Shown here one piece after another: positions 5,490-58,216 of a stretch of DNA of 64,000 bases. Source of the DNA: Phoronis australis (taxonomy: Eukaryota; Animalia; Phoronida); the NCBI GenBank assembly GCA_002633005.1, contig NMRA01000008.1, forward strand, positions 1,259,080-1,323,079, read 5' to 3'. A program made the position numbers and the translations under genes. The number at the start of each line of letters is the position of its first letter. Positions within the stretch are counted from its first letter, which is position 1. Under the pieces are notes generated by a model. That model searched no databases, was not told the DNA's origin, and saw only the letters and a list, made by a program, of their open reading frames with translations.

Positions 5490-5672
5490 GAGTCAGATGA
5501 AGAGGAAAGGCGAGAACGTGAGAAGAAAGAAAGACAGGAGAAGAGTATCAGGGAGCGGGAGAAGGAAGTGGAGCGCACCCTGTCGTCATCGCTGCGTGAG
5601 CGCGACAAGGAACGCGAACAGCACAAGAAGGACGAGGCCATCCAGCACTTCAACGCCCTCTTGGCCGATCTG
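5490..5672 (+). CDS. TCERG1: TCERG1 exon (ESDEEERRE...SIREREKEVERTL...RDKEREQHKKDEAIQHFNALLADL)
   Basis: tag acceptor and gtagga donor, 183 nt. Encodes a charged linker plus the start of an FF domain, as in TCERG1. Confidence 0.95.
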
Positions 5673-6213
5673 GTAGGAACCGCAGTTATCCAACTTAATG
5701 ATGCGTACAGATCTTTGACTAAGTTTCTGCGTGTGAAAGTGTGGAGACAAATCCGTTTCGTTTTAACAAAAATCCGTTTTAATTCCGGCTTAATCTCGTC
5801 AAAATCGCAAAATTTTGCACCTGGAATTATGCATGTCTGTCGATTTTGGCCAACAGAATTAGTGGGTATGCGCAATGCCATTGAATTTGTCTCTGATGGA
5901 AATTAGTGCACAGTTCGTTTTATACATTTTTAAATGCCTAGTAACACGTGCATTGTTGTATTGCAAACAGGTAGCAGATTCCAACTGCCAAAATTTAAAC
6001 TGCGAAAGTGGCGTAAATTTTATAGCAGATATTTGGGCTTATTTATTTGGTCCTGGACTAAAAATCCGATTTGTTTTACGAGGTTTTGTAGTAACGTGAA
6101 TGAAATGTACTGTATCACGTGGGAGTGGTCGGCATTTATTACTCTTTTGACCGCATGGATGTGTTCTGTATACATTACCCATTACACAACATGACTGTCG
6201 TTGTTCTTGGCAG

Positions 6214-6477
6214 GTGCGCAATTCCGAAGTGTCGTGGCGCGATACGCGCAAACAACTAAAGAAGGACTCTCGCTGGGACCTGGCCGACCTGATCGAGCGA
6301 GAAGAGAAGGAGAAACTATTTGACGAGCACATCCTGAGCCTGACCAAGAAGAATAAAGAGATGTTCCACAAGCTACTCGATGAGACAACGGAGGTGACGC
6401 TCACCTCCACCTGGAAGGAAGTAAAGAAACTGATTAAGGAAGACCCGCGTTATTCCAAGTTCTCTTCCAGTGATAGG
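6214..6477 (+). CDS. TCERG1: TCERG1 exon (VRNSEVSWRDTRKQLKKDSRW...TWKEVKKLIKEDPRYSKFSSSDR)
   Basis: cag acceptor and gtaagt donor, 264 nt, FF domains. Confidence 0.96.
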
Positions 6478-6795
6478 GTAAGTATTCCCTTGTTCTGTTA
6501 TGTTGTTGCTGCTGCAATCTTTTGGCTGGCTAGATTGTCAGCATTGGCATTGTCAGCGGTTTCATTGTCAATATCTGTTCTTTCTGTTGTCATCAGTGTT
6601 GAAGGTGGTATCATTGTTGTCTTCATTGATGTTATTGTCAGTGATTCTGGCACCATTTTCAATATTGGTGACGTGTTGTTTTGTCAGAGCGCATTCATTA
6701 TTTCATTATTGTTATTATTTTCTGATAGAAAAAACTGAAAAATGTGTATATATTCCCTGTTTGATTTTCTCTACATGTGGATGTTTGGTTTGTAG

Positions 6796-6896
6796 AAGCG
6801 TGAGCGCGAGTTCGACACGTACATCGAGGAGAAGTATGTCACAGCCAAGTCGGACTTCCGAGAACTACTGAAGGAAACCAAACTGATCACACACAA
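6796..6896 (+). CDS. TCERG1: TCERG1 exon (KREREFDTYIEEKYVTAKSDFRELLKETKLITH)
   Basis: tag acceptor and gttagt donor, 101 nt. It ends in phase 2, which fits the next exon. Confidence 0.95.
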
Positions 6897-6901
6897 GTTA
6901 G

Positions 6902-7040
6902 TAGTGGTGCAGCTCTGTTAGTGGTGCAGCTCTGTTAGTGGTGCAGCTCTGTTAGTGGTGCAGCTCTGTTAGTGGTGCAGCTCTGTTAGTGGTGCAGCTC
7001 TGTTATTGGTGCAGCTCTGTTAGTGGTGCAGCTCTGTTAG
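6902..7040. repeat. 17-bp minisatellite (TAGTGGTGCAGCTCTGT) x8
   Basis: Eight near-perfect units (one G>T) immediately after the TCERG1 donor at 6897. Confidence 0.97.
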
Positions 7041-7917
7041 TAGGCAGTGTAAAGAAACAGTTTATTGACTGGACTCTCACCAATCTGCTGTGATGCTGAA
7101 CCTTTAAGTACAATACCTGCTGTAAAAATTTTCCAGTTTTGTACAGTATTAGTTGTTTTGCTCATAAGGTTGGAGCTTGTACCAAGTTTTAGAAATAGGC
7201 AATGTTGGCCATACCAAGTTGAAGAATTACGTGAATTTTTTCAGCCTGTAGATCAGACATCAGCACTGCCCTCTGATGGGACAGCTTGTTAACAACACGA
7301 GAGTGGCCTCTGAACAATTTTTCCTCTCTTAATAAGTATCAGAAACATCAGATACATGGCATTACCAAGTAGTAAACAGCTTTAGGTTATTCTCTATTGT
7401 GAAGTGATTCAAGGTTTTCTGCCTCATAAATAACATTTAGTTCACCTTATTTGACTCCAGATGTGTGTGAACATTACCTTGCGAAGTGCCTATCGGTTGA
7501 ACATTCAGAACTTTTGTTGCTCAGAATGAAGTAGATCGATATAATCTTAAAATGATGTGGAACCTGATGAAAAGTGTTTGTTTTTAGAAAAAAAATCTGT
7601 AAGCATGGTCGTTTATTTTCCTGATGATTGAATTTACCACTGATCCCATTATGGTGAGGGAATTTTGTGCTAAGTGGAGAAAAAGACACAGCCCAAGGTT
7701 CATCTGAATTTGAATCTTAGCTTCATAAACTGCTGCTTGTTTACATTGGGGAACGTGTTTAATCTTGTGCCTTGCAGAAGTACGTCTGATAGCCATTCAT
7801 AACTGTGGCAGCCTTCAGCCCATTAGGTTGAATGAATAATTATTAGCTAGTAACCGGCAATCCAAAAGTATAGATAAGATCATCGCCGTACCAATCCCCT
7901 TTTCTTCATTATTGCAG

Positions 7918-7978
7918 GTCACTTAAAATGACGGAAGAGTCGGATGTTCATTTGAATGATGTTGAGAAAATCTTGGAG
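7918..7978 (+). CDS. TCERG1: TCERG1 exon (KSLKMTEESDVHLNDVEKILE)
   Basis: cag acceptor and gtaagg donor, 61 nt, in frame with both neighbouring exons. Confidence 0.93.
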
Positions 7979-8638
7979 GTAAGGGAAGATCTACTATTAA
8001 ATTGCAACCCGGTACTTGGCCAACTCTCAACTGTCCCGCATATAGTTGTAGAGTATCTTTGACCAAATCGCTAGGAAGATAACTCCGTTAACAATCGGCA
8101 ATCATTTATTTCACTCGTTTCAGCTGGCTGCCATTTTCGTTGCCCATTATTTTTTATGCGCCCACATATATGTGGACGCATTATCTTTGAATTGCACATT
8201 CTGTTGTGATGACGTTATTTTAAAGGCGATCTATTCACAAAATCCTGTTAATGCATGGACAGATGTCTGGGAGCGGGGTGCACAAGCACTCCTCGCACCA
8301 ATTAGGGATGACGCGATTATCTGTCAGTTGAATGTTTTTCATAGTTCACAGCGATGTTGATAAGGTTATAAAAATCACTTTCTACTAACTGTTTGAAGTT
8401 GTTGACTACACGCGTAAGTTATTTTTTATTTTTTGCGGACATGCCCTCAGCCCAGACGTTCAGTAGGATTTTACCTTATTTCGATAAAGTCTTTGGACCA
8501 GTTGGATCAGACTGGCACAAGTTTTACTGTAGTTGGCCATCTTCATTTCAAGCTATAAAGAGGCTAACACACAGCCATGATGGCCTGATCAAGTTTCTTC
8601 ATGATGCCAGATAATCTATACTGTCTATTGCTTTTCAG

Positions 8639-8785
8639 AATGACAAAAGGTACCTAGTCCTCGACTGTGTGGAGAACGAACGGAAGAAAATGGTCATTGC
8701 TTACATGGAAGACCTTGACCGAAAGGGTCCCCCACCGCCCCCTACAGCCTCCGAACCTTCTCGTCGAAGTGCAAAGAAAGAGTAA
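8639..8785 (+). CDS. TCERG1: TCERG1 terminal coding exon (NDKRYLVLDCVENERKKMVIAYMEDLDRKGPPPPPTASEPSRRSAKKE*)
   Basis: cag acceptor. The C-terminal NDKRYLVL...GPPPPPTASEP is diagnostic of TCERG1. Stop TAA at 8783-8785. Confidence 0.96.
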   Translation, partial: NDKRYLVLDCVENERKKMVIAYMEDLDRKGPPPPPTASEPSRRSAKKE

Positions 8786-9355
8786 ATGGTTCATCTTAGT
8801 GATGATTCACACGACACAAGGGTCGTAGTTGTGCCTCTTGTCTGTAGGGGTCACTGTTTTGTTAGGTAGCACGGTTAAATGGATCGCAAATAGCAGGGTG
8901 GAGGATTGGTTCAGTGACCTGGCTAGTAAGTTTAATGGCCAGTCTGTGTAAACTAAACTCTTCTCTAGAATTAATTTTGTGGACACGTGCAAAAACACCA
9001 ATTGTCAGATTTCTAAATTCTCTTGACAAGTTTCAGTCAAAGACTCCGTGACTTCCAGCTGCTAGGTAGTTTGTCCAGCCACTGGATTGTTCTTGCACCC
9101 TGTTTAGGATTATTCACTGTTGTAACATTGAATTGTGTGAAAAATTGAAAAGTAGGTCGTTCCAGTTGTACCTGTCGTGTTACTGTTCTGAATGCAATTA
9201 ATGCATCTGTGCGCAAATTTTAAAATCCTGTGTCTTTATTGAGGATTGTATCTTGAACACTTTTGGCAACGAATGATGTTTACGACGCAGCATTAAGCAA
9301 TGTTTTAATAGTCCTGTTGTCAATTTTAAGGTAAAAACTGTCTTGACGAGAATGT

Positions 9356-18120: not shown

Positions 18121-19049
18121 GTTAATTGTAATCAGTGTTTGTAAATCCTCGGAGTATTTCAATACACATGACGGATGCTTATCTTCCATCGTAACCAATG
18201 TTTGTAATTTTTAGCTTATTACTCGAGTTCATGAATTTTTAAAAATCAAAAACCACACTTAGATGATTTTTTACAACTGAATAACGCTGTGATGTTTATT
18301 TTTAACGGCAATTATTGGTTTATGTATTTTGAAAGTTCCCAGTACGTACAGGCAGAGATGTTTACTACGGCCCAGTAACTACACTTAATTTGGTGTTGCT
18401 CATACCAGAAAATGCGGTCATCACAACTATGCTCGACTACGGAGCCAAGCTCTCTTTGATCCTGGTAAAAGACCCCCAGGAAGACCAGCAGTGAAAACTC
18501 CTGCATATCTTTAGAAATGTGTGTATTCCTCGTTATTAAAGCGCATTATTCACGGCACGAGGCTGGCTCAGTTCACACAGTACTACCGTACGTCTAACAG
18601 AAAGGTTGCCCGTTTTCTTCATACCGTAAATAATACTCACACAAGTAATTCACAGATTTCTAAAGATATGCGGGAATTTTCATCGCTCGTCCTTCTGAGC
18701 GGTTTTTACCAGGATCAAAGAGAGCGCGGCGCCAGAGTGCGATGCAGTTGAGATGACCGCATTGTCCAGTGCTAGCAAGACCAAATTAAGCGTAATTACC
18801 CGACCATAAAGTGTAGTAAACATATCTGCCTGTACACACTGTCGAATTTTCAAAATGCATTAACCAATAATTTTCGTTAAAAACGAACACCTCGGCAGTA
18901 TTCAGCTGGAAAATCAACCAAGTACGGTTTTCGATTTTTAAAAACGAACTAAGAAGCTAAAATCTACAAATATTGGGTATGATTGAAGATAAACGACCAT
19001 GCATATTGATGTACTCGGTGGATTTACAAACGCTGATATCAGAGTTAAC
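18121..19049. mobile_element. Long-armed palindromic (foldback/MITE) element, arms about 400 bp, spacer about 125 bp
   Basis: 18121-18523 aligns in reverse complement with 18650-19049, e.g. ctctctttgatcctggtaaaa / ttttaccaggatcaaagagag and gcatatctttagaaat / atttctaaagatatgc. Confidence 0.85.
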
Positions 19050-21210: not shown

Positions 21211-22133
21211 GATGTTTAACAAATTATTACATTTAACTCTCATCAGTATTTACAACCAGAAAAAACTTTTCAGGCTCGCATACTTCTTGTTTAGAGAGAA
21301 TAATGGCTTTAGCTGATTGCTATGGCAACGCCTCAGTCTAGGGTCCGGAAACTAGTGCATTCCACGGCCGCCGTCCAGTGAGACCCAGAGGCGCGAAAAC
21401 GCAAGCTAGATCACAAGTCTTCGCGAAATTTCGCCATGCATTACAAGCCAAGTAACTGATCACAATGATCTTTTACGTCGAGTGTTTTGGTCAACGGAAC
21501 TTTCCTTCGGACCACGCCGGAGAACTTATTTCGATCTATTAGAAGTACCGGTAAGCCACCCATGCTATATTTTCCAACGGCGATTTCAATGGTATGCCGC
21601 ACACCGCATTTCAATTGAAGTGGAAGGGCTCGAGTGTATAGTAAAACGTATAAAGCACATTAAATTTATTGNGATGTTTAACAAATTATTACATTTAACT
21701 CTCATCAGTATTTACAACCAGTAAAAACTTTTCAGGCTCGCATACTTCTTGTTTAGAGAGAATAATGGCTTTAGCTGATTGCTATGGCAACGCCTCAGTC
21801 TAGGGTCTGGAAACTAGTGCATTCCACGGCCGCCGTCTAGTGAGACCCAGAGGCGCGAAAACGCAAGCTAGATCACAAGTCTTCACGAAATTTCGCCATG
21901 CATTACAAGCCAAGTAACTGATCACAATGATCTTTTACGTCGAGTGTTTTGGTCAACGGAACTTTCCTTCGGACCACGCCGGAGAACTTATTTCGATCTA
22001 TTAGAAGTACCGGTAAGCCACCCATGCTATATTTTCCAACGGCGATTTCAATGGTATGCCGCACACCGCATTTCAATTGAAGTGGAAGGGCTCGAGTGTA
22101 TAGTAAAACGTATAAAGCACATTAAATTTATTG
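21211..22133. other. Tandem duplication of a 461-bp unit joined at a single N (21672), probably an assembly/haplotype overlap artefact
   Basis: 21211-21671 matches 21673-22133 with about 4 substitutions, and the junction is an N. Confidence 0.8.
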
Positions 22134-30710: not shown

Positions 30711-30876
30711 GTGACGTCACAGTTTCGAATGGCAGTCATTGCTCAGTTTCGTTTAATCGCCGTGAACGGCTACCCCAATCTATTTTAGTCATCTGACTAT
30801 GCGTCCACCAAGAGAAATTCCCCGGTATTCACTATTGCCCATATAAATTCAGAGACATGGCCAAATCACATCAGTT
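30711..30876 (+). promoter_or_regulatory. Proximal promoter of cytokine-like gene A: CRE, kB-like site, TATA, Inr
   Basis: GTGACGTCAC at 30711-30720, GAGAAATTCCCC at 30812-30823 (GGGGAATTTCTC on -), TATAAA at 30842-30847, and an Inr-like TCAGTT about 30 nt downstream. Confidence 0.7.
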
Positions 30877-30938: not shown

Positions 30939-30945
30939 ATGCAAG
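30939..30945 (+). CDS. Helical cytokine-like gene A, coding exon 1 (ATG CAA G)
   Basis: aacATGCAAG|gtaag. A phase-1 donor is needed to put exon 2 in frame, and the same structure occurs in gene B. Confidence 0.8.
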
Positions 30946-31369
30946 GTAAGACGCGGTTGATTATATACCTACATAATTAGCATCAAACATGATATCGACG
31001 AGACAAATTTTAATTATGTCTCATTTGGGTTCAACCTTACTAAATACCGATTTCACTGAATATTTTTGAGTAATGCAGATTAAAGGTTCTTTATAGAATA
31101 GGCAAACTTATCCTTAAAAATCGCAATACATACTAATGGAATTTATATTTGATTAGCGCGAGAAGTTTCATTCTAACCAAGTTAGTCGTGAAAACCATCT
31201 TTGGTGTTCATCTGTTCCATTAGTAAAGCCCGTTAGGAAAGGTGAAAGTTCCATAGACACAGTTTATTTCAGTTCGAATATTCTTAGCAAAAATCGGGCC
31301 GTTTCATTCATTCAGGCAATATAGATAAGCAGACTGGCATACAATTTGCCCGCGTTATACATGTGACCG

Positions 31370-31610
31370 TTCTGGGAAATCCCAGGGTTGCCATAGGAAC
31401 CGTGCTGAGTAAGAATAGTGCAGAATATTATGAACCCGGCTTTTTGGGTCTAACACATGCTTAGAATGACGAATAATGGGAAATCACCCTAAAATCGACA
31501 GAAAACGTTTTCTGATTTCGGGCTTTCGCACTATGATTTCCCATAATTTGTCCTCGAGGCCGGAATAAGGGAACCGCAAACGGATATTCCAGATAAGGCG
31601 GGAAATTTTC
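31370..31610 (+). promoter_or_regulatory. Intron-1 STAT/NF-kB motif cluster of gene A
   Basis: TTCTGGGAA (31370-31378) overlaps GGGAAATCCC (31374-31383). Further GGGAAAT half-matches occur at 31478, about 31534-31542 (-) and 31600. Confidence 0.55.
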
Positions 31611-31958
31611 AACGAAAATATAAATGAGCACAACACTGTAGTAGTAATGATTCACATTAACAGTTCAACATGCAAACGCGCGGTAGGTATAAAGATCTCT
31701 GAGTAATCTTCAGAGCGGTCTGTCACCAACTGAGACTGATCGCAGCTATAGCGAGTCAATACCAGTGGTTCAAATTTCATATTAGGGTTCAACATGGTAA
31801 TAAAGGCCTATGGTCCGAGTTTTAGTCAAAAAAAAACTCTTAACGGCGTTTTAGCCGATTTTTTGGTGTGATAGATTTAATTCCTCTCCAGTTGATTTTT
31901 CTGTTGCTTGTATTCGATTAGCCCCTGATCACGAGAAAATCGTTACTTGCATTTACAG

Positions 31959-32230
31959 GAATAAGAAATACAGTGATCACAGCCCTCCTCTCTTTTGGTC
32001 TCATGGGCATCCAGTCGGCGTCAATCGGCGGCGTCAAGACGCAGCGAGACGTCGAGTCAACACAAACGAGCCATGGAAGATGTCACTGGTACAGACCATG
32101 CGGGGGTGAGATAGAACAAGTCCAAATTAATACGACTCCGAGTGGACAAACCTTCAATCAAGCTTACAGAGACATGGCAGTAAAGGCTTTTGGACTATCT
32201 AGACAGTCGCAAGATTTAAAGATATCCTAC
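31959..32230 (+). CDS. Cytokine-like gene A exon 2 (signal peptide, pro-region, CHWYRPC, helix A)
   Basis: cag acceptor and gtgagt donor. Reads GIRNTVITALLSFGLMGIQSAS...GRCHWYRPC...YRDMAVKAFGLSRQSQDLKISY, paralogous to 53823-54097. Confidence 0.9.
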
Positions 32231-33914
32231 GTGAGTTTATTTTACAATTTAAGTCACTGACAGTTTGCGTACCGGTACGGTATATACTTTGTTGAGCGTC
32301 CGTAGTCGGATTACATTCGACTCGGTAAAATGGCTTTTCAGTCAGCCTAGCGGGGACAGGGGGGTGGTGTCCGATCAAGAGAATCAAATCGCATTCAATA
32401 CCCAAAATAAAATTTCCCGTATGTAGTGCCTCTCACTGAAAATTCTCTGCAACCGCCTACGCAGTGTTTAAAACCAAAACTGTAAAGACAACGGGCAACG
32501 CGTTTCGAAGAAATCGCAACCTGCCAGAACAACAACGTCCTACTGCATTAAATAGGTCGCATAAGTAATCGGAAAGGGCTATTGGGTGATAAGGTGATGG
32601 TTTGCGATAACTTGGCGGGTGACGCAAAATTGCAAGGCTTTTCAGACCTGTAGAAGTTCCCTTGATTTTAAAGTGTGCAAAATTTAGATTTACACGCCAT
32701 CGCAGTTGAATGAGACATTTATCAGTGCGAACTCGCAAATGTAGTAATGTGCTGTTTATGCCACCTCCATCCAGGAGAGAACGGTAAGAGTGTGTCAGGT
32801 CGTTTGTTTTCCAACTGCTCTACGAAACTTCTTAGATCTTCATAGGCATCTCATTTGAGTTTGTTTTGTATTTGTACGAATTCATATAGTGTATTCGCAC
32901 TATTGGACTGCACCTGCAAAATTATAATTGCATTAAGTTACTGGAATTATTTTTGGAGTGTGCAACTTGTGAGTTGTGTGTGAAGTTGAACCGTCCATTT
33001 GATTTGTCTCACGGGCTGTAAAGCCCCAGGCATAGTCTAGGTAGTCTGACCATAGACTGGTGGCCGCCTTGTCCTGTTGTGTTAAAACCGAAGGTAGATA
33101 ATCTCCATTATTCAACCTAAATATTTGTTTCATTTTTGGCGGAAATTAGTCACGAAATGTTTTTAAATTTACATGCTCGTACTGACAGCGGCTCCTTGGC
33201 TTACTTCGCATTTGTCAGTTGATGAAAAAGGTGACCCAGGCTCATGGAAGTGAGGAAAGCACAAAAAATTCAGTATTTCAGGCTTCATGTCCAAGTCTCA
33301 ATTTGCAGTACAATTGTCCGGTACTTCGTCTCTCATGGATCTATTATGAACAAATGGACGTCGTGCTCAACAAAACTTGTCTCAAGGAAAATTTGCTGCC
33401 GATATACTCCAAATAAAATATATATAACACATAGATAGGTGACTTGGTTTATGAAATTTCGAAAAGTGTCCATGAATTTTATCGCAGTTGTTGCCAACTT
33501 CACTGTATCCTTGATTAGTGTGAAAGTTTATTCTGCCTGTGTTGGAGCTGTTCACTGTAGTTATGCTGAGTGAAAATTAGTTTTAATTGACCAAGCGTCA
33601 TTGGAGATTCTTTTTGGTGGGGAAGATGGACAATTAGAAATGGATTATTAACATTTGTGGTACCTGTATCATAGGTCTGTGATTTGCAAAAACTGTTAGC
33701 TCAATCCTGTTGTGTCAAAATTCTCGACTAAACCAAAGGCACTCTCATTACTCATTTGACTATATGTATCAGAACTTCTATATAATGTGGTGTAAAAATG
33801 CAGTGGCTGATACGTGTGCATGTGTGAGAACTTTTGTAGTGAGAACTGCCATGGTATGACTGGGTCCTCTGCTTTTTATGATAATTGCACCGTTTATTTA
33901 ATTATTATTGACAG

Positions 33915-34028
33915 ATCAAGAGAGCAATGCATGACCCGGAGTTTGCGAGTCTGTTTGATGCATTTCACTTCAACAAATTTCCTGTCAATCAAGTCACAGA
34001 CAGCGCAGTGGAATTCGCCACAGAACAC
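33915..34028 (+). CDS. Cytokine-like gene A exon 3 (114 nt; AB loop IKRAMHDPEFASLFDAFHFNKFPVNQVTDSAVEFATEH)
   Basis: cag acceptor and gtaagt donor, phase 0/0, paralogous to 55660-55773. Confidence 0.9.
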
Positions 34029-34559
34029 GTAAGTCAGATAATCACAACAGAATATCTATAAGGATATGTGTCACTTTATCAACAAGTGTGTAGTTGCCCA
34101 AATATCTACTGTAGAACAATGGGTTTTAACTCAGTGAAAGTTTTACATTTTCTGAAAGTAGAAAGCCTTTATTTATTTTTTTGTTTACTTTAAAGCTATA
34201 GTGTCTTGTGACCATATCTTTTTGTAGTAAAATTTAGCAAAAAGAATGGTTCGTTTATAGAAAAACAACATCATCATCAATAACGTGGCAAAGTTTTGAT
34301 TGATAAAAATATTCACGATGAAATCTCAAAAATGCTGCTGATGCATGTCTTGCCGCTGATCATGATGTTGTTAACTCCATTGTTAACAATGCCCCCTGGT
34401 GCCAGATATCACATGTAAAGCTGAATTAACTCGTGTAATGTTGCACTGTCATCTCAGATAAAAAGTTACTAGTAACTTGCTTAACGTTACTTCAATCGTA
34501 TCCATACTGGTCCGCCATGGTATGTGACTCGTCCTTAGTTTTGCACTGCTTTATTTCAG

Positions 34560-34749
34560 ACCGACACGTTTCTTGTTCAAACCTATCAAGAGATGGCAAC
34601 CATTTCCGTCTATCTTAACAGAGTGCGACTGGAGAACAAGCACTGGTCAGTAGGTGGCAACAGTATGTTCTACACCACCATCGACCAGATTTCTATTCAA
34701 TATTGTGATTTGATGTGCAGCCTCAACATCCATATCAAGGCAACTAAAG
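34560..34749 (+). CDS. Cytokine-like gene A exon 4 (helices B and C: TDTFLVQTYQEMATISVYLNRVRLE...IQYCDLMCSLNIHIKATK)
   Basis: cag acceptor and gtaaat donor, 190 nt, ending in phase 1. Confidence 0.9.
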
Positions 34750-35289
34750 GTAAATTCAACACCCACATGCACACATGCAGTCAGGGATACCAATTCTTTT
34801 GTTCATGTTGCCCTCGAGGCCTTAAAATCCATTTTGTGTTATGTCTAGTTCCCTGATCTACCTTAAGTCAACAAAACTTTCACGTACGAGTTAAGTGGTG
34901 TTTTGAACAACAGTCGAAACTTTAAAGCCTTTGGAACATCAAAAAATCGCTTTCGAAAAAATTCTGTAAACATATGCTCTTCAAGTAGAAATTGTTGAAA
35001 TATATTTGAAACAGTTGTACAGAATGTTTTTCTTTGCTTTTGTTTTTAGAAACTTCCTCGAAATTTTGAAAATAGAATCGATGGCAGTTCTCCTAAATTT
35101 ACCAGTCGATAAATAACTCAGTAAAATTTATTTAAAAAATTCCTGGCAAACCAATTGTTCTGGTAGGATTGGTGTGTGATTAACGTAAAAATGTGGGAAG
35201 CAGATGGACCAGTTGGAAGGAAATGTGAAATGTTTTGTGTTGGTATGATGTAAGTGAATTGTTTTACACTCATTGTTTTCTCGTTGTAG

Positions 35290-35468
35290 GTCTCGTAATA
35301 CCGGAAACGGTCACCGAAGATGTTATAGATCCTCATTACGATAACTTGGGCTTCAGCGAGACCTACAAATATGTGCGCGACTACATAATAATTCGCGATT
35401 ACAGTCACTACCTTAATTACTTGGGTGAAATGATGCAGGAGTTGGAGAATCTGCCTTCAAACCACTAA
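35290..35468 (+). CDS. Cytokine-like gene A exon 5 (CD loop and helix D: ...YKYVRDYIIIRDYSHYLNYLGEMMQELENLPSNH*)
   Basis: tag acceptor in frame. Total CDS is 762 nt (253 aa). Confidence 0.9.
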
Positions 35469-36363
35469 AGTGATAAAGCTGTTCCACGTTTCCCCGCACC
35501 CTATGTGGGGTGCCCAATTTGTACAGTTTATGATCCATCTGATATTCAGATTGGTTCGTAAGTTGTACAAAAATGTATGTGCTATGCACGTGTTATAATT
35601 TTAAATAAATGATTGCTTAACATGTGATTTGATGACATCAAAACAGTTGTATGATTATGTTCCAGTTGTCTGAGACAATTACCAACCACTGGGTGCATAA
35701 TTGTATTAATTTTTGATATCATGTGTTTGATAATTATTTTGATCTGTTAAAGGCTAGTATATCTATTTAGATATATTTCTCATGAGTGACTTCAGTAAAG
35801 ATTTGTTATCATTAGCTTTTTTATTTTAAATTGTTTGTGAACTGGAATACAAATTAATAAGGAAATAGAAAAAGAACTACTGTAAAATGCAGTTATGATA
35901 TGTAGCTTCAAAGCTTTCTAAACAAACTTACTTGTAATAATGTAATGATGTAATAATGTAATAAATAAACTAACAATAATGAAGTGATGGAAAAATTTTA
36001 ATGAAAGGAATTTTAATAAATGTTTGTTAATACTTATTACATTCAGTGTTGTAAATCAACTGAGTGTGAAGTTGTGTAACCGTAACTCAGAGTGTTATAA
36101 TCAAAAAATGTACTGTAGTTTTGTAATCATGAAGTACTTAATCCACTATCTTGTTTTGTTTTGTTTTGTTGTGTGTTGTTTTTGAAGTGTTATTACAACT
36201 TGTTCATGATTTATGTGATGGGTTAGTACTGCAATATACTGCCAATAATTTATGCTAATTTATGCCTGTTATGTGAGACTGCTACTTAACCTGAGTTTTT
36301 GCTCCGTTTAAACTACTGCTTTTTCATTTGTGAACTGCTGATATTTCCTGATATTTATATCTC

Positions 36364-36387
36364 TTTATTTATTTATTTATTTATTTT
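36364..36387 (+). promoter_or_regulatory. Class-II-type AU-rich element in the gene A 3' UTR
   Basis: Overlapping ATTTA pentamers (TTATTTATTTATTTATTTATT), with a matching tract in gene B. Confidence 0.65.
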
Positions 36388-36597
36388 TTTATTTGGATAA
36401 GTTGTTTAAGTAGCTGAATACCGCATTTTACTTAAAATTTCTAAGTTTCCCACAATATGTTTTTGGGTTTTCAATATGGTTAGTTAGGGTTCCAACTGTC
36501 TATATCATGGAATATTAACTTAACATTCCTATGCAGAGTGTAAATATATAACTTGCCTGTACTGAAAGCATTCCTTTGTAATTCGTGGTTGTGGTGT

Positions 36598-38229: not shown

Positions 38230-38808
38230 NNNNNNNNNNNNNNNNNNNNNNNNNNNNNNNNNNNNNNNNNNNNNNNNNNNNNNNNNNNNNNNNNNNNNNN
38301 NNNNNNNNNNNNNNNNNNNNNNNNNNNNNNNNNNNNNNNNNNNNNNNNNNNNNNNNNNNNNNNNNNNNNNNNNNNNNNNNNNNNNNNNNNNNNNNNNNNN
38401 NNNNNNNNNNNNNNNNNNNNNNNNNNNNNNNNNNNNNNNNNNNNNNNNNNNNNNNNNNNNNNNNNNNNNNNNNNNNNNNNNNNNNNNNNNNNNNNNNNNN
38501 NNNNNNNNNNNNNNNNNNNNNNNNNNNNNNNNNNNNNNNNNNNNNNNNNNNNNNNNNNNNNNNNNNNNNNNNNNNNNNNNNNNNNNNNNNNNNNNNNNNN
38601 NNNNNNNNNNNNNNNNNNNNNNNNNNNNNNNNNNNNNNNNNNNNNNNNNNNNNNNNNNNNNNNNNNNNNNNNNNNNNNNNNNNNNNNNNNNNNNNNNNNN
38701 NNNNNNNNNNNNNNNNNNNNNNNNNNNNNNNNNNNNNNNNNNNNNNNNNNNNNNNNNNNNNNNNNNNNNNNNNNNNNNNNNNNNNNNNNNNNNNNNNNNN
38801 NNNNNNNN
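38230..38808. other. Assembly gap (579 N)
   Basis: Run of N. Confidence 1.
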
Positions 38809-39389: not shown

Positions 39390-42331
39390 AATTTAAAAGA
39401 ACGGAAACACATACACGCATGCGTTTCAATCCACCGATCCACAATCAAAATGGACACTAGATGAACAAAATATTTGACGATCACTTTCAATTCGAAATTT
39501 GAAAATGTCTGCACTTTATCGAGCTATGCTATCAAGTGTACCAAAATAGCAGACGACCAACATATTTTCTGCTGTTTGTTTTTTGATCGATTTTAAGGCA
39601 AAGGTCATTCAAGATCAAGGTCACTTGATTATTTCCCAATCGCTGTTACTTTCCTCCAAAAAAGGATTCTGAGTTTGGAAATTAGACGCTGGGCTCAGGC
39701 CTGACTGTCAGTTTTACGCTCGTCCTTGGCCGCAATCTTGCACTAGCGGGGTATGAGAAGAGTTAGTGGTATTGCGTCATAATTAGACCGGCAGTAAAAG
39801 GCCGCCTTGGCATAGATGAACGAGATACCATCATCTGACCATAACAGCACTTACAGTCCACCTCAGTATATACAGAAATGTACGTTTGCCGTTGTCTAGA
39901 CTCTGGATGTGACCCCTGGGGACCTTACAAAGGGGACAAAAACGAGCTGATTACATATTCGAGGTACCGGCCAAAACTGATTTAAAACGGACAATAGTAC
40001 CGCACTGAACATCAAAATACACATGACAGAAAAACTGCACTGATACTGGAATGGGTCCGGCAGAAACCAAGAATGGACCCCAAAATGAGCGAGCTCATAC
40101 ATTCGAGGAACCACAAAAATCAATTCCATGTGATTCAATACATGCCACTGATCACTAAATGCCCCATGACAGACAAAATACACTCTGGGTTGTGCACTTC
40201 ACTGAGAAATCCTCAAAAATGTCAACAACGGTAAGCCATTGGAAATTTGAGCTATATATTGGATATACGAGATACTGAGCTAAATCTGATTTAAAACGAA
40301 CAATGGTACCTCACTGGACACCGAATGACCCATGCAGTCTGGAAAGCGTCCGCCAGAAAACCAAAAAGACCCCCCCCCCCCAAATGAGCTAGCTCATACA
40401 TTCGAGATACCACAAAACAATTCCATGTGATTCAATACATGTCACTGGTCACCAAATGACCTATGACAGATAAATTACCCTCTGGGATGCCAGTGCCTGC
40501 TAGAAATCCCCAAAATTCTCAACTACGGTATGCCATCGAACGTTTGAGCTACATTAGACAATTGAGGTACCCTCTAAAATTGACTTAAAACCAACAAACG
40601 TTCCGCATTGAACACCGAATGCCACGGCAAACCAAATGTCCTCTGGAAAAGGTTCACCAGAAGCTCAAAGGAGCTAGCTCATATATTCGAGGTACCACAA
40701 TAAACAATTCCATGTAATTCCAATAGATGTTACTGGTTACTAAAGGGCCTGTGAAAGACAAAACCCAATCTGGTTTGTGTGCGCCAGCCCCAGAAATCTC
40801 AACCACGTAATTCTGTTGCAAACGTGTGATACATTTGATGATAAAGGTTCCTGTTAAATTTTGGTGAAGTTCCATAGAATCAAGAACTTCGATAAGGAAG
40901 GTATTGTGATCACGTGCTTCGTTTGCAGTTATGGCGAATTCTTGTATTTCCGTAATACTTTCGCGTCCACCGATCTCTCGCCTTGCTTAAAATTAATAAC
41001 AGCGTTAAACTGAGTTCCAAGAAGTTGATGGCGGAAAGTAATTTGGAAAATACCTGATAACACTAAAACTTTGGGATACCAGGAACTGTCACTTTCAAAC
41101 AGCAACCCAAAAACTTAAAACAAGATAAAAGACACATTAAAATCACTGCATGGACGAGAACATTAGGTATACACATGTTTACACGTCAATAATAGTTTCT
41201 TGTTAGATTTTATGTTTCACTATCAGATTCGTCACTGCTTCTCCAACTTGATTCGGGCTCGCTTGTTTCGTCATCAGTCCATTTCATTTCCTTCTTGATC
41301 GGCTTGTTTTCTTGAAAAGACCCGCACCTTCAAAAAGGACGACAGGAACGGCAGGTCCACAAAACCATTGGAGAGTATAATATCTATAATGTAGCTTCCA
41401 TCAGTAGTTGAAAGTATTCCAAACGTTTCCTAAGACCATCGCAACATAATGGGCTCATTTAGCTTGTTCAGTAGTGTGTTTTGCAAGTAGAAAACAATGC
41501 ACTGTCTATCGTCTTGACGTTGGACATCGGGTTTTCTGGAAATAAATAGTGAGAAAACTTAATTGATGAGGAACCAACTGTCTAACAGTGGAAAAAACCT
41601 AGAGCCAGAACATCACTTACTGTCCTTTAAGCATCATCTGAGACTGGACCTTTTGGTTTAATACGACGGAAGCGTTATTTGAAATTATTTTCATTGCATT
41701 TATCAACTATATTTTACCAATTATGATTATATTTCCGGTCATGTCGATTAATTTCAGATATCTCGCTTCATTATCTTCGACGCCCTCCTTCAATCCAAAC
41801 AGTATGCTTATGAAATTCTTCTAACTTTCTTTTGCCTGGACAAACGTTTGAGTTTACTATGAGGATGTGTTCTACTGTTGTTTTCGTGCTGGGTTCCTAA
41901 AAACGACGTCACCACTTTCCATCGACGAGTATTTTACAACAAGCTAGGTTGTTAGAGAACTCAACTAGGATTTAGGAATCGCTTAGTTTATAGCAGTCTG
42001 AAAATGGCTGGAGTCGGCGACCCATATCACAGACACAGTGTCGTGAGTGACGGAGACATATTGTTCACAGCAGCGGTGAAGAGGAATTTTTCACGAACAG
42101 TCAGTGGGTAGATATAAGCTTGAGCGCGAGTATAATGAGACAGAAAATGCACAGAGACTTGCGGGATGAGGCAGAGACTGATGACACACCTGGTGGGACG
42201 TCTTGCTGCACGGTGTGCACTGTTATAATACAGGCCTATGCTGTTCCCACTGGATGGTGACCTGAGAACGTTGCGTAGACGGGTAACGCTGCTTTCTTCA
42301 CACGAACGAGACAAAGGCGGCAGAGTGTTAC

Positions 42332-44103: not shown

Positions 44104-47100
44104 GTACTTCGTGTTACTGACAGCGTACAACGTATAATTATGTCAATTTTCCCGTTCTTTGCAGATTGACCGACTTATTTGAATTTTTTCCGCTATTCCG
44201 CCATCTAGATGTCCTGCTTTTTGACACACGTCCAAACTAACATACTGTCATACACTACTGTGATTTCCCACGCAACATAGCCATATTTTCCCGCTCGACT
44301 TCCTTATCGAAGTTGCTGATTATACGAAACTCCAACAAGATTTAATCGGGATCTTCATTGTTAAATATATCACACATTTTCGACAGTGTGTTTTGGCTGT
44401 CACAAGCCATTTAGTAACCAGTAACATGTACAGTGTATTCGAATCACAGCGAGTTGTTTGTGTGGTACCTCAAATACATGAGTTAACTTCTTTTTTGGGT
44501 GTCGATTTTGAGTTTTTGGCGAATCCTTTCTGAAGGACAATTCGTCTGTCATGGGTCATCCAGTGCTCATTGCGGCACGATTGTTGGTTTATCATGGGGC
44601 ATTTAGTGACCAGTGACATGCACTGAATCACAAGGAATTGTTTTTTGTGTTATCTGGAATGTATGAGCTAGCTCATTTTTGGGTTCAGCGGACCGTTCCA
44701 GAGTTCAATTTGTCTGTCATGAATCATTTGGTGTTCAGAGCAGTACTATAAATCAGTTTAAGCTGGTACCTCGAATATTTAATCAAACACTAATTTTCAG
44801 TGGTATACCGTGGTTGACATTTTTGGGGGTTTCTGGTGGGCACAACCCAGAGTGTATTTTGTCTGTCATGCGGCATTTAGTGGACAGTGACATATATTGA
44901 ATAAAATCGAATTATTTTTCTGTGGTACCTCGAATGTATGAGGTAACTCATTTTTTTTTGGGGGGGGGGCGTTTTTGGTTTCTGCCGGACCCATTCCAGT
45001 ATGCAATTTGTCTGTCATTAGTCATTCGATGTTGAGTGCAGTATTATTGTCCGTTTTTAATCAGTTTAATTGGGCGGTACCTCTAATATCTAATCTAGGT
45101 CATTTTTGACCCCTTTGTGTCCCCAGGGTCACACCCAGAATGCAGATAACGGCAGAAATCCATTTCCGTATATACTGAGGTGGACTCCAAGTGCTCCTAT
45201 GGTCAGATGTTGGTACCTTGCTCATCTATGCTAAGTGCTCTGGGCTGCCGGTCAAAGTGTGCTTTGGAACATCCCTTAGTTTATACAAGTGTGCTGGCTA
45301 CAAATTAGGATTAATATTCGCAAGTTTTATTCGAAATCACCATTTGTCTTTGCCCAAACATACAATTCCAGACATGGTACATGCTTAAAGTTCTAGTTGA
45401 AAGTACGCATCTTGTACAATCATTAGAGAGAAGTGACGGAAATTCTATGTTTTGTTGAAGGTCGTTTACATTCGCCAAGTGGTTTATACTTTGCGGTTGC
45501 TTAAAAACAAATGTGACGTCAGAATCCGGAAGAAATAAAAATTCGAAGTCGTTTAAAAAGACATTCGATTTCTGGAACGAGTAGCAGCAGCCAATCGGAA
45601 GACACGAAGGGTCAATATAATGCTCTAAAATACTGAGTGGCTGCTTGTAAGCCTGTAAGTCCATAATATCCCCAAATCATATAATAACAATAGCTATTCA
45701 CTCGAAAGGGTCCCTGTGTTCAAAGTCTGCCCGTGGATGTCCCCGAACAGGGGATAAGTTAGCCCATCACTGAAACTCGAAGTCCATTATTCCGTAGCCA
45801 GCGCACCTCACAGAATTAATGAGGCGCATGATATTGACTGGACTACGCGCGAGCTCTGGACAACATCCGGCTAAAATTCACAGGCTAAATGTCACATTTC
45901 TTGTCCGATTTTAAAAATTCAAAAACCATACAAAGTCTACTTCTCATGAACGATTCAAGTCTAAAATTAAAAAAATCGCCACCCCCAGTATGTTTATGGT
46001 GGGTCTGATTATCTAAGAACGATAACATCAGCAGATTGATGCAACTTTGAACCACAACAGCATACCTTTGATCCCAACCGGCAATTCTTACGGTAGGCAA
46101 ACCGGTCGAGTTGCCGAATCTCGACCGGTTTCTGCGTCAACGGAAAGGCTTCTTGTTATGTGTTCCAAAGCGCATTTGTTACTACTGTGAAATTTTCTTA
46201 TGGGGAACAAAGTTGACTTCTGGGCAACAATTCTTGTTATTCCTTTCAACTTAGTTTTGTGCCACTAACCCTCTCATACCCTCGCTTCCTACACAAGTAG
46301 ATAAGCCGTCGTGTAAGATTGCGGCACTAAAGCGGATGGACAGGTCTGAGCCCAGCATCTAATTTCTGAAATCATACACACACGAGATACTCGAAACTTC
46401 AAGCTAAAGTCGCCATGTTTAGCCAGGCTAAAAGCGAAAATGGAATTACATCTTTTGCTCTACCATTTTAACTCGGTCACACAACACTCATTATCATGAC
46501 AGTATTTCCTGTTACCAACAAAAATCATGAAACCATCACTGGCTCACTCAAGAGTTTATATGCCAAGCTGGATGTGGTCAACACAAAAATTGCGAAGCCG
46601 AAACCAAATGGCGTATGAACACCGGCACTGCGGAATGTTGTGACGGGTTCTCATGGTTAAAGTATTGGAACCTCAGCGTGTTAATATCCAGCCATTCCCA
46701 TTGTTGAAATGTGGGGAACCCCTTTCAGTTTACTGTTTTGTACATGTAGTATGGCGACCACCTTTGACTTTAATATTTGCAATATATTAAAACGGTCAGT
46801 GATCGAAGTAAGAAAATCAAGGGAACCCCGATCCATTGGCTTACGCCCAAACAATGAGTGCATAAAGCGTGTGCAAGTGGTGGCGATGTGACCGGTATTG
46901 ATGCTGTTACTACTCGGCAAATCTCTGCCCGCCTCATTAGAAGCGCGCTGCAAGGTCCGGATAGCTTTTCTTTGTAGTAAAATAAGATTGATTAATTACA
47001 CCCTGCAAGTTTTATTCAGACAAGGGTGAAAACTACAAAGACAAAAGCCGCAAAGAATTGTTTACATAAATCCTTTTCTCCATGCATGATATACAAAGCT

Positions 47101-52950: not shown

Positions 52951-52958
52951 TATATAAA
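52951..52958 (+). promoter_or_regulatory. TATA box of cytokine-like gene B
   Basis: TATATAAA 57 nt before the ATG, preceded by ccccggt as in the gene A promoter. Several CCAAT motifs lie at 52237-52491. Confidence 0.65.
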
Positions 52959-53007: not shown

Positions 53008-53014
53008 ATGGAAG
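53008..53014 (+). CDS. Helical cytokine-like gene B, coding exon 1 (ATG GAA G)
   Basis: agcATGGAAG|gtaaga. The start of intron 1 aligns with that of gene A. Confidence 0.8.
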
Positions 53015-53822
53015 GTAAGAAGCGGTTGTGCGTAACGATAGATAAATAAGAAACATGGTCTCGATGCGGAGACAACTCTGAAGGCTTCATTTGGGTTCTG
53101 CCTTACGAAGTATTAAATTTGGTTACATCTTTCCAAGTAATACAGGTTCTAGGCTCTTTTGAATAGAAAAAGTTTTTATCTATGGAACCACGATTTGTTC
53201 TAAGTAAATCATAAAGTGTATTACAGGCGGAAAAAGTTATACCTTACCAAGTTATTCGTGAAACCTATTTTTGGTCTTCGGCTGTTCCTTTAGAGAACTC
53301 TATTAAAAACAGTAAAACTCCCGTTGCATTTTTTAATATGTTTAAGAATATGAAAATAGGTTTCATTTTTTCACTCATAATCGATAGGAACGACTCAACG
53401 GTAACGTCGCACGGTAATGGACGAACTTTGTATCGAACGAACGGGGCATAGTCACGAGCAACAATATTAACTGTCAGTTTCTTGAAAGACCAAAAGAACC
53501 TCTTCCCATCCCAGTAAGGAACAAGTTGAGCAAAGAATTGTAGCAGTTTTGTGACCTAAACCAAGAGTTAGTTTTTTGGCAGAACGCGGGTTTATCGTCA
53601 CCTAAATCTGGCGTACATAGCAAAGCATCATGCTAAACATTTATTGCTAGGTATGTAAGTGCATATGTTACATGTTTAGTTACAATTTGTTAATTACTTG
53701 AGAATATAATGCATTGCAAAGAAATGGTTTAGTTTATTTGCGAATACGTATGTCCAATTTCACGTTTTTTTTTCTTTCCACTAACTTTGAATCTCTCAGA
53801 AATTTCACGCTTGAATTTTTAG

Positions 53823-54097
53823 GAATCAAAAATTCATCGATCGTCCTGATCCTCCTTGGCCCGTTCATCATGGACATCTTGTCGGCGCCAGTCGACAGCA
53901 ACGAGACGCAGCAAGTCGTTGAGTCAACGCAGACGATAAACCGCAGATGTCATTGGTACAGACCATGCATTAGTGAGATAGAACAGGTACAAGCTAACAC
54001 GACACCAAGCGGACAACTCCTCAATGAAGCTTACCGAAACATGTCATTGAAGGCTTTTGGACTATCTATACAGTCACAAGATTTAAAGACATCCTAC
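53823..54097 (+). CDS. Cytokine-like gene B exon 2 (GIKNSSIVLILLGPFIMDILSAPVD...RRCHWYRPC...QSQDLKTSY)
   Basis: tag acceptor and gtaaga donor, with a signal-peptide-like N-terminus, paralogous to gene A. Confidence 0.9.
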
Positions 54098-55659
54098 GTA
54101 AGATTTTGAAACATTTATTTGGATGAGTTTTAATCCAATCAAATTGTAGTGTTGGCTACTTCAGTATCGTTGTGAAAATTTATTAATTTCACCTGCTAAA
54201 ACGCGTTTTTCAAACCAATGGGTAAGTCTTATTTCATAATTATCCCAGATGTATCAGCGTTTGGGATTTATTATCCTTAGCGGACGTTGATCGTTCCGCA
54301 GAAATCTTGGTGAGCATAATTAGTACAGTTATCAAGTAAAATGTTACGTCACACGTGAGAAGACGCACCATAACATCACCACGCGGCAGTAAAGGGTGTT
54401 TATTGGAGGCTGGTATTTGATGCAGGGAACCGTTCAAGTTCTGCTGTTGCCAAAACAGGAGTGCTGAATTGATTTTTGGATAACCTAATACACTGGTTAG
54501 AGAACCATACCGAGGGACAATTTATAGAGAAACCGGCGGATATAGCGTGTGGTGAAAAGAGTGTACGCACAACTTTGAAGCAAGTCTGACGGCCCGGGCA
54601 TGGTGATGAGTTTTGGTTTAGTCCCGAGGGGGCGCAACCTTTGACTTCCTGAATTTTTCAAAGACGAAGAGTTTGACCTGACTGTTACCGATGGACGGTA
54701 TAGGCCTAGAGCCGGTACAGTGTGTTCCTTCGCAGCGCTCACCTGTGGTGAAAATGGCGTTACAAATGTCAATTCTGCGCAAGAACTTGGAATCCTGCTT
54801 AATCTCAAGATCGCGTATGCGTGAACTTGGATTACACGAGGAAACTTGACAACTTCACTCAAATAATCACGTTCACGTTGATAAAAATTTGCACCGCACT
54901 AACTCAAATTACATATTAACAAATTAACGTAAATTTTAACCAATCTTTTTCTAACAATTCACAGTATACCTCCGATTCTGTGACACAAGTTACGCTAATG
55001 GAGGAAATGGATGATCATGAGGCCAACAATTACAAAACTCTTTACAATGACCAAAAAGTTCACCTGATTGCCCAAATGAATATTCAGTTCCAAGCTCACG
55101 CATTCACGATCTTGAGATTAAGCAGGATTCTAAGTTCTGTATTAGAATTTCGTTTCCGTTTTATACAACTTTATTTTTTTCGCAAAAACCACATAAGTTT
55201 CTTTTTTGATAGCTTCTCATGCAAAAATGAAACATTTAAAAAACAATTCTTAAAACATTTTGGGGAACTGTGTGTAAAGCATAGTAGCTGAAAGATTCAT
55301 AAGAATTTACCTGCCGTTTCTGAAATAAGATATTCCGGAGTTGGCCAAAATTGGAAATTTTTATGGGCCCTATGTGACTTTAACATTTTGACGAATCTGA
55401 CTGGTGCTGGCGGAAACGGGCAACTGTGGCCAAAAACGTGTCTCGAATACGGCATCAATAATGGACCTCCTACCGGTGGTGTCTGCAACTATTCCGCGCC
55501 ACTCTCAATTCTAGCCCGTTGTGTCTAAATCTTTGGGAACTGTCGATTGGCTGTTACATGCACCTTTGTGAGAACTTTCGCAGTGTGAACTGCCTTGGTG
55601 TGACAGGGTCCTTTGGCTTTTCATGATTATTGCACTGTTTATTCAATTATTATTGACAG

Positions 55660-55773
55660 ATCAAGACAGCAATTCATGACCCGGAGTTTGCGAGTCTGTT
55701 TGATGCATTTCACTTCAACAAATTTCCTGTCAATCAAGTCACAGACAGCGTAGTGGAATTCGCCATAGAACAC
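55660..55773 (+). CDS. Cytokine-like gene B exon 3 (114 nt)
   Basis: cag acceptor and gtaaga donor. Reads IKTAIHDPEFASLFDAFHFNKFPVNQVTDSVVEFAIEH. Confidence 0.9.
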
Positions 55774-56286
55774 GTAAGACAGATAACGACATTAGAATAT
55801 CTATAATGATATGTGTCACGTGATCAACAAGTGCGTATTTGCCCAAATATCTACAGAACAATGGATTTTAACTCAGTGAAAGATTTATATTTTCTGCAAC
55901 TAGAAAGCCTTTATTTTCTACTTTAAAGCTATAGTGTCATGTGACCATATTTTTATGTAGTATTTAGTAAAATTTAGCAAAAAGAATGGTTCGTTTATAG
56001 AAAAACAACACCATGGCAAAATTTTGATCGATAAAAATATTCAAGATGAAATCTAAAAAATGCTGTTGATGCATGTCTTGCCGCTGATCATGATGTTGTT
56101 AACACCATTGATAGCAATGCCCCTGGTATCAGTTATGACATGTCAAGCGGAGTAAACTCATGCAATGTTGCACTGTCTTCGCCGACAAAAATCATTAGTA
56201 CTTTGATAAACGTTAATTCAATCGTTTTAATAATTATCCGCCGTGGTACCTGACTTGTCCTTAAGTTTTGCACCGTTTTATTTCAG

Positions 56287-56476
56287 ACCGACACGTTCCT
56301 TGTTCAAACCTATCAAGAGATGGCAACCATTTCCGTCTATCTTAACAGAGTGCGACTGGAGAACAAGCACTGGTCAGTAGGTGGCAGCAGTATGTTCTAC
56401 ACTACCATCGACCAGATTTCTATTCAATATTGTGATTTGATGTGCAGCCTCAACATCCATATCAAGGCATTAAAAG
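56287..56476 (+). CDS. Cytokine-like gene B exon 4 (190 nt)
   Basis: cag acceptor and gtaaag donor, nearly identical to gene A exon 4. Confidence 0.9.
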
Positions 56477-56784
56477 GTAAAGACAAAACGCACACGCCCA
56501 CGCAGAGGCGCACGCAATCACCCGCAATCATTGGACTGTTTTTTTTCATGATGTCTTATAACGGCTAACCAAACACAAGTTTTTGGCATCACAAATTCCT
56601 TCTTTTCTCACCTCCATTCTCTCTCGACAAATCGCTCACTTCCCAACGTTTACCATGTTTTCTTCATTTGTACATGACTTTGGAGTGAGCTGAAAAGCAC
56701 TGATTGCACGATATCTGCACAATATAAGCATGTAATTCTGAAACCCGTTTGGAAACGAAATGCGCGAACATTTTTAAGTCTGGT

Positions 56785-56988
56785 CAGCACGCCACCTGTG
56801 GCCACATCACGTGAACTGAATATAAGTATGAAAAGATTTCTGCCCCAACCGGGAATCGAACACGGAACCTTCTACTCAGTGGATTAGAGCTTGACTACGG
56901 TTACAAGCGTTCGAGTCCCGCTTGAGGCAGAAGGCGTTTCAGACTTATATTCATTAGGTCACGTGATGTAGCCACAGGCGGTGTGCTG
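56785..56988. mobile_element. Palindromic element with tRNA-like T-arm/B-box in both arms, in intron 4 of gene B
   Basis: cagcacgccacctgtggccacatcacgtga...ctgccccaaccgggaatcgaac / gttcgagtcccgcttgaggcag...tcacgtgatgtagccacaggcggtgtgctg. Confidence 0.75.
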
Positions 56989-57485
56989 CACAAAGTAAAC
57001 TGTTACTCTGAGCTTGTCAATTGATTGCTGACAATGTATGAAGAATTGGTTTCGATGTAATTTTACTGTAAATGTGCACACTTAAGGCCATGCGTCTAAT
57101 TCCAAAATGCGTTTCTTTCACTCACGTTCTCCATGCAATAAGGCACACGAGCCTACTCTTTACTGTCTTGGGCACAGTCATCTACACACGTTACTAAATT
57201 TGTGTTTTCCCAGGGTTTTCGTCCATTCTTAGAATTCACCTATATCGCCCAGGAGAGTTACAATTGAAGTAATTGTTAACGTAATAGTATCTAACTTCCA
57301 CAGGAAAGGATCTTAAATCTGCATGCTTGATTTTGTGGGTGTATGACGCTCATGGTTCTTATACTTTTCTATGGACAAAGTATAAGTTTCAGATGATCAC
57401 GATTTCTGCCACTGTGTAGTTTAATGTTCACTAAGAGGTATAATCCTGTAACTTTTTTCCACTCATCATCGTTATCTTTTGGTAG

Positions 57486-57661
57486 GTCTCACAATACCAG
57501 AAGTGGTCAAAGAAGACGTGATAGACCGTCGTTACGCTAACATGGGCAACGAGTCCTACAAATACGTGCGTGACTTCATAATAATTCGGGATTACAGTCA
57601 CTACCTAAATTACTTGAGTAAACTAATGCTGGTGTTGGAAAATCTGTCTACGAACAACTAA
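57486..57661 (+). CDS. Cytokine-like gene B exon 5 (...YKYVRDFIIIRDYSHYLNYLSKLMLVLENLSTNN*)
   Basis: tag acceptor in frame. Total CDS is 762 nt (253 aa). Confidence 0.9.
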
Positions 57662-58187: not shown

Positions 58188-58216
58188 TTATTTATTTATT
58201 TATATTTTGATTTATT
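58188..58216 (+). promoter_or_regulatory. AU-rich element in the gene B 3' UTR
   Basis: TTATTTATTTATTTATA plus a further ATTTA. Confidence 0.65.

Follow-up and report, generated by a model that had tools for sequence, protein, structure and literature searches.

A 64,000-nucleotide (nt) stretch of the Phoronis australis genome (contig NMRA01000008.1, positions 1,259,080 to 1,323,079; referred to here as the window) carries a tandem pair of paralogous genes, A (30939-35468) and B (53008-57661), the second lying beyond the range given in the original prediction. The encoded proteins are likely to be secreted and belong to a family shared with insects. They are predicted to fold as four-helix cytokines of the long-chain class I type, would signal through a Domeless/gp130-like receptor and JAK/STAT, and probably serve as inducible stress or immune signals. 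The probability given to this reading is about 0.7. The signal peptide would export a four-helix protein of roughly 230 amino acids (aa), and the exported protein would engage a Dome/gp130-like receptor and activate JAK/STAT. A and B are regarded as probable new members of a known cytokine class, and not as demonstrated orthologues of IL6, IL11 or CSF3.

Homology to the IL6-type cytokines had been proposed from the layout of exons and introns. The homology is supported, mainly by protein evidence in the form of the predicted fold of an insect relative, and the layout is weak as independent proof of it.

Gene structure and expression

Each gene has five coding exons (Table 1), which join into a single open frame of 253 aa. 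All eight introns of the two genes have GT..AG borders and the phases are 1,0,0,1 in both. The two proteins are 76% identical, and a tblastn search with A found no third copy within the window. The exon sizes originally predicted, 7/272/114/190/179 nt for A and 7/275/114/190/176 nt for B, and the accompanying phases are confirmed by the splice sites and open frames. Support for the 7-nt first exons comes from the sequence itself: an ATG with a GTAAG donor, a TATA box 57-97 nt upstream, and the recurrence of this arrangement in both genes. Gene A has no in-frame ATG from the upstream stop to exon 2, and the one such ATG in gene B is inside the intron. No phase-0 acceptor is present within 60 nt of the start of exon 5 in either gene, so the phase 1 of the last intron is no mis-call and a phase-0 alternative for intron 4 is ruled out. 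The predicted departure from the vertebrate genes at this intron is therefore firm in both A and B.

Three RNA runs (X1, X2 and X3), of which about a fifth each was read, contain 11, 22 and 67 reads on gene A, respectively. Splicing of intron 3 of A (34028>34560) is seen in 9 of these reads (0, 1 and 8 by run). Sense reads cover exons 3 to 5 and the 3' untranslated region (UTR), in the latter over 36189-36395. Because no RNA junction is listed for introns 1, 2 and 4 of A, these are drawn from sequence and from agreement between the paralogues. Junction reads placed on B were rejected as proof of its expression, the A-type base at 55667 being present in 11 out of 11. The very low expression in the three runs would fit an uninduced cytokine.

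The 3' half of intron 2 of A (32670-33911) also carries sense RNA reads, with exons 1 and 2 bare, and there are loose read ends at 33170 and 33367 with letters that the window lacks. These intron reads could stem from RNA that was not spliced, from a start inside the gene or from another allele. An open reading frame (ORF) of 76 aa at 33186-33413, in the same intron, has no Pfam match.

An insect relative and its predicted fold

A profile of the two exon 5 peptides identified a single protein (P0001) at E <=0.001, with an E of 6.1e-4, among 1.84 billion. This is a fragment of an uncharacterised 244-aa protein of Rhodnius prolixus, P0002 (T1IEV2), for which there is a second record, P0003 (XP_073998466). 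Exon 4, which was unused in finding P0002, matches it better than 2000 of 2000 shuffles (z 7.2), and 2 of 2000 shuffles do as well as exon 2. With exon 5 removed, the score of A is reached by 1 of 2000 shuffles and that of B by none of 2000. The matches of exons 2, 4 and 5 are colinear, and identity to P0002 is approximately 28% over the C-terminal 125 residues. By these sequence comparisons, the A and B proteins are homologous to the Rhodnius protein.

Like A and B, the Rhodnius protein has a signal-like N-terminus, a W-x-x-P-C motif before helix A, the helix B stretch, a cysteine in helix C, and an RD-x-II-x-RDY motif in helix D. It is slightly shorter than the 253-aa A and B proteins and, unlike it, these have four cysteines in two close pairs. 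A hydrophobic stretch is present at residues 9-26 in both A and B, with no other long hydrophobic run, consistent with a signal peptide.

AlphaFold2 was run on a six-row alignment led by P0002. In the resulting model the AB and CD loops are long and the helices are at residues 52-81, 118-153, 159-186 and 210-243. It has a mean predicted local distance difference test score (pLDDT) of 62.6 and a predicted template modelling score (pTM) of 0.66, a level reached by two of the five models. Exon 2 of A folded alone has a pLDDT of 54 and one helix at about residues 66-80. Of the 46 rows that Foldseek listed for the P0002 model, 45 belong to the long-chain class I cytokines. VIA-align, run on 700 of Foldseek's 707 candidates and thus a second look at those candidates only, places CNTF (Z 16.4, root-mean-square deviation (rmsd) 2.7, 161 aligned) and IL-11 (Z 16.4, rmsd 2.7, 160 aligned) at the top, followed by CLCF1 (Z 15.4), IL-6 (14.0), and G-CSF and prolactin (13.4); all 50 rows listed are long-chain class I cytokines. 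The ESM Atlas neighbours of P0002 at 0.93-0.96 carry the Hormone_1, IL6, LIF_OSM, IL11 or GCSF families, and near it are unnamed chordate, arthropod and mollusc clusters as well as LIF, IL-6, IL-12a and G-CSF-like clusters. The viral structure library had no match at E <=0.001, its best helical cytokine being viral IL-10 at rank 7. The prediction for the Rhodnius relative is thus a four-helix bundle of the long-chain type, with CNTF and IL-11 as the nearest structures, and A and B would have the same fold, as carried over by alignment. A tyrosine is conserved at the start of helix D and may be positionally equivalent to the site-III tryptophan of IL-6 (PMC7378365).

Searches by sequence returned little else. 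No Pfam match to IL6 (PF00489), IL11, GCSF or CNTF was found on the six exons of A and B searched or on P0002. Pfam Unpaired (PF15972) scores E 0.024 and 14.6 bits on P0002, below its 27-bit cut-off, and has nothing on single exons. Word-index homologue searches with exons 4 and 5 turned up 3 and 4 candidates, of which none reached E 10, and the PDB searched by sequence gave none for P0002 or for alignment A6. Among metagenome contigs there were 204 and 148 pattern matches and among viral contigs 91, with none confirmed in either.

Intron positions and alternative explanations

A and B were each aligned to P0002 under 30 settings, giving 60 alignments, and the introns were read against the helices of the P0002 model. 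Intron 2, in phase 0, falls at P0002 residues 77-85 in 50 of the 60, where helix A ends at 81; it is unaligned in six and at residue 98 in four. Intron 3 falls at residue 129 (45/60) or 120 (12/60), at the start of helix B, and is unaligned in three. Judged by eye, the L-V...V-Y-L spacing seen in IL-6 helix B (PMC3271213 supplement) recurs at the beginning of exon 4. Intron 4, in phase 1, is 1-5 residues past helix C in 56 of the 60. The proposed assignment of helix A, the AB loop and helix D to exons 2, 3 and 5 agrees with the model and the alignments; exon 2 has most of helix A, and exon 4 has helices B and C. On the model, intron 3 is at the expected place and intron 2 is probably at the end of helix A, and it is the phase of intron 4 that does not correspond.

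The coding exons of IL6 are 19/191/114/147/168 nt, those of IL11 7/173/87/162/171, those of CSF3 40/164/108/147/165, those of GH1 10/161/120/165/198 and those of PRL 28/176/108/180/192, all with phases 1,0,0,0, and their introns fall where helix A ends, where helix B begins and where helix C ends. An IL-6-type exon plan is therefore not specific, because introns 1 to 3 of A and B fit a plan common to helical cytokines; the original claim that the layout mirrors IL6, IL11 and CSF3 holds only in part, since other helical cytokines share it and the last phase differs. The matching sizes of 7 nt and 114 nt come from different genes (IL11 and IL6) and are weak alone. No single vertebrate gene is known to have both a 7-nt first exon and a 114-nt third exon. 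It is likely that introns 1 to 3 follow an old long-chain cytokine gene plan, which places them in the signal peptide, where helix A ends and where helix B begins, with intron 4 a lineage-specific gain or shift.

The Rhodnius sequences bear on the first and last introns. The two Rhodnius N-termini diverge after residue 2, which implies a first coding exon of about two codons. P0001 runs from pyrimidine-rich, intron-like sequence into residue 175 and then unbroken to the stop, within one contig ORF. This suggests a phase-0 last intron in mid helix C in Rhodnius, with none at the position of intron 4 of A and B. The last intron may therefore be labile within the invertebrate family.

It is less likely than not that the protein homology is genuine while the intron similarity is coincidence or convergence, all introns having been gained independently with phase bias and loop positions explaining the match. 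Under a rough, post hoc model with assumed phase frequencies, a match of three of the four phases has a chance probability of 0.21 and of the first three 0.07-0.13, while a 0-0 exon of 87-120 nt has one of 0.28 and an exon of exactly 114 nt 0.02. The phase-1 last intron after helix C, set against the phase-0 intron seemingly within helix C in Rhodnius, also favours independent introns, as does intron 3, which by eye is one codon farther from the helix B motif than in IL6. Against this, introns 2 and 3 each fall no more than about 5 residues away from the helix end where they are expected, for which the post hoc chance is 0.01-0.03, and the Rhodnius models too imply a tiny first coding exon. 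The exon plan is accordingly treated as supporting evidence and not as independent proof, as the locus alone does not prove shared introns. A broader proposal, that A and B are in a bilaterian-wide, unnamed sister family of the vertebrate gp130 cytokines, constituting the missing invertebrate Domeless/gp130-like ligand, with three ancestral introns kept and an IL-6/IL-11/G-CSF/GH exon plan older than the protostome-deuterostome split, is tentative and falls somewhat short of even odds.

Two other explanations address the proteins. The same fold could belong to a growth hormone/prolactin- or leptin-like endocrine signal, or to the ligand of another class I receptor. Prolactin is at Foldseek ranks 2, 3 and 7-10, Hormone_1 is in 24% and 13% of the members of the top two Atlas clusters, and GH1 and PRL have the same 1,0,0,0 plan, the exon 4 of PRL (180 nt) being nearer to 190 nt than that of IL6 (147 nt). 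This is nevertheless unlikely, with CNTF and IL-11 three Z units above prolactin by VIA-align at an rmsd of 2.7 versus 4.2-4.9, and AU-rich UTR clusters and a tandem duplication that would suit an inducible cytokine. It is very improbable that A and B are unrelated to cytokines and that the Rhodnius match or the fold call is spurious: the library E is borderline (6e-4), there is a single relative and the alignment behind the fold is shallow, but three exons match P0002 colinearly and two structure aligners and a language-model search agree.

Several observations weigh against the reading of A and B as secreted cytokines of this class. Pfam searched with six cytokine-gene exons singly has no family at E 1, and in the PDB by sequence exon 4 gave two chance rows and the exon 5 profile had no row at E 10. 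A single full-length relative was recovered, and the match of exon 3 to it is not significant (43 of 2000 shuffles). The fold model is of that relative, approximately 28% identical at the C-terminus, and not of A and B themselves; its mean pLDDT is 62.6 and three of the five models scored only 41-50. The best Foldseek E is 0.033, with none <=0.001, and a Z of about 13-14 is reached by helical bundles through their common arrangement. MAFFT and hhalign place intron 2 inside helix A; the register at the end of the helix is favoured because the other needs an insertion of 22-25 residues in the helix. None of the three RNA runs has reads over exons 1 and 2 of A, and there are no reads specific to B in them. 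Dome is listed as not found in Rhodnius in one review (PMC13535093).

Surrounding sequence and comparison with known systems

The window has a GC content of about 40%, and the upstream neighbour of the pair is TCERG1, of which the 3' exons with FF domains are present at about 450-8800 (+); the downstream neighbour lies beyond the window. Similarity between A and B is much higher across exon 3, intron 3 and exon 4, with synonymous divergence (dS) of 0-0.07 and 444 of 505 aligned bases identical in the intron, than in exons 2 and 5, where dS is 0.34-0.67. The contrast suggests gene conversion over this tract (Table 1). The overall ratio of nonsynonymous to synonymous divergence (dN/dS) between A and B is 0.52.

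Within the window there are 10 STAT-type gamma-activated site (GAS)-like and 5 kB-like sites, and the overlapping pair in intron 1 of A is not found in B. Of 13 plus-strand AU-rich nonamers, 7 fall in the two 3' UTR clusters of A and B. The AU-rich clusters, TATA boxes and STAT/kB-like site may fit, weakly, an inducible and short-lived message. The promoter motifs were discarded as evidence, being too common in the window.

Table 1. Coordinates in the window of the exons of genes A and B, candidate regulatory motifs and the putative conversion tract
Feature	Position	Strand	Remarks
Gene A coding exon 1	30939-30945	+	7 nt, then phase-1 intron; sequence only, no RNA reads
Gene A exon 2	31959-32230	+	272 nt; likely signal peptide, W-x-x-P-C motif, most of predicted helix A; no RNA reads
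Gene A exon 3	33915-34028	+	114 nt; predicted by alignment to hold the AB loop and the last part of helix A; donor spliced in RNA
Gene A exon 4	34560-34749	+	190 nt; predicted helices B and C; acceptor spliced in RNA
Gene A exon 5	35290-35468	+	179 nt; CD loop and predicted helix D with RD-x-II-x-RDY; RNA reads present
Gene B coding exon 1	53008-53014	+	7 nt
Gene B exon 2	53823-54097	+	275 nt
Gene B exon 3	55660-55773	+	114 nt
Gene B exon 4	56287-56476	+	190 nt
Gene B exon 5	57486-57661	+	176 nt
TATA-box-like site, gene A	30842-30848	+	Motif scan; candidate only
CRE (cyclic AMP response element)-like palindrome upstream of gene A	30712-30719	n/a	6 such sites in window; weak
Overlapping STAT(GAS)-like and kB-like sites, intron 1 of A	31370-31383	n/a	Weak
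Overlapping AU-rich element cluster, 3' UTR of A	36365-36385	+	Motif scan; RNA reads cover region
TATA-box-like site, gene B	52951-52957	+	Motif scan
Overlapping AU-rich element cluster, 3' UTR of B	58188-58204	+	Motif scan
Probable gene-conversion tract	33804-34774 with 55548-56501	+	Spans exon 3, intron 3, exon 4; 87% DNA identity including intron

Repeats are present in and around the genes. A palindromic element in intron 4 of B (56764-56988), with the look of a tRNA-like B-box, draws many RNA reads from other copies, and inverted elements resembling it are at 18131-19037 and 54782-55138. Between A and B are inverted, internally repeated blocks at 39806-40860 and 44299-45235 with 68-77% identity, near which the ORFs tested have no Pfam match above cut-off. 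Also between the genes is an N gap of approximately 580 nt (38230-38808), which could hide sequence. A 461-nt near-perfect tandem duplicate at 21211-22133 has single Ns at its edges and is possibly an assembly artefact. An Rfam search found nothing.

Surveys based on BLAST (PMC13203501, PMC12284397) report IL-6-family ligands in vertebrates only, with Dome/gp130-like receptors, JAK and STAT widespread. Unpaired (Upd) is reported to be absent from all studied Hemiptera in PMC13535093 and PMC5778769, and to be present in cockroach and thrips in these and in 10.1101/2023.12.09.570905. A and B are candidates, open to testing, for the JAK/STAT ligand that most invertebrates are reported to lack, and the Rhodnius protein would be a candidate JAK/STAT ligand, on its predicted fold and weak Unpaired match, in an order reported to be without Upd. 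The family, which is conserved, has a usable motif and includes a Rhodnius protein, offers concrete candidate ligands to express or knock down, and the exon plan, if shared, would date the architecture of class I cytokine genes. The literature searched, with most subscription papers and all figures outside the search, contained no description of the A/B family and no intron phases for IL6, IL11 or CSF3.

The predicted fold of the relative is like that of the gp130/IL-6 group (IL-11, CNTF, CLCF1, IL-6 and G-CSF; Z 13.4-16.4), although identity in the structure alignments of the P0002 model is only 8-14% and exons 2 and 4 of A and B are longer. The genes agree with the IL6/IL11/CSF3 plan in having five coding exons and a phase-1 first intron in the signal region; they depart from it in the intron near the end of helix C, which is phase 1 and not phase 0. 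The gene plan of CNTF differs from that of A and B. Growth hormone and prolactin share the fold class of the P0002 model, but with lower Z and higher rmsd than IL-11 and CNTF. Five coding exons are likewise described for IL-6 and G-CSF in PMC13081863 and PMC6389648, and in IL-11, as in A and B, the start codon is separated from the first intron by a total of 7 coding nt counted from its first base (PMC3271213). In interferon-lambda 2/3 too, the first exon is very small and ends in phase 1, and the introns after the first are in phase 0 (PMC2654155). The upstream neighbour of A and B is TCERG1, unlike the TOMM7 given for IL-6 in PMC13081863. Drosophila Unpaired and the cockroach and thrips Upd are secreted helical JAK/STAT ligands, as A and B would be, although the Unpaired match on P0002 is weak, and the cockroach and thrips proteins may belong to the A/B family. 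In the cockroach, knockdown of Upd blocks leg regeneration, as does that of Dome and of Stat, according to 10.1101/2023.12.09.570905.

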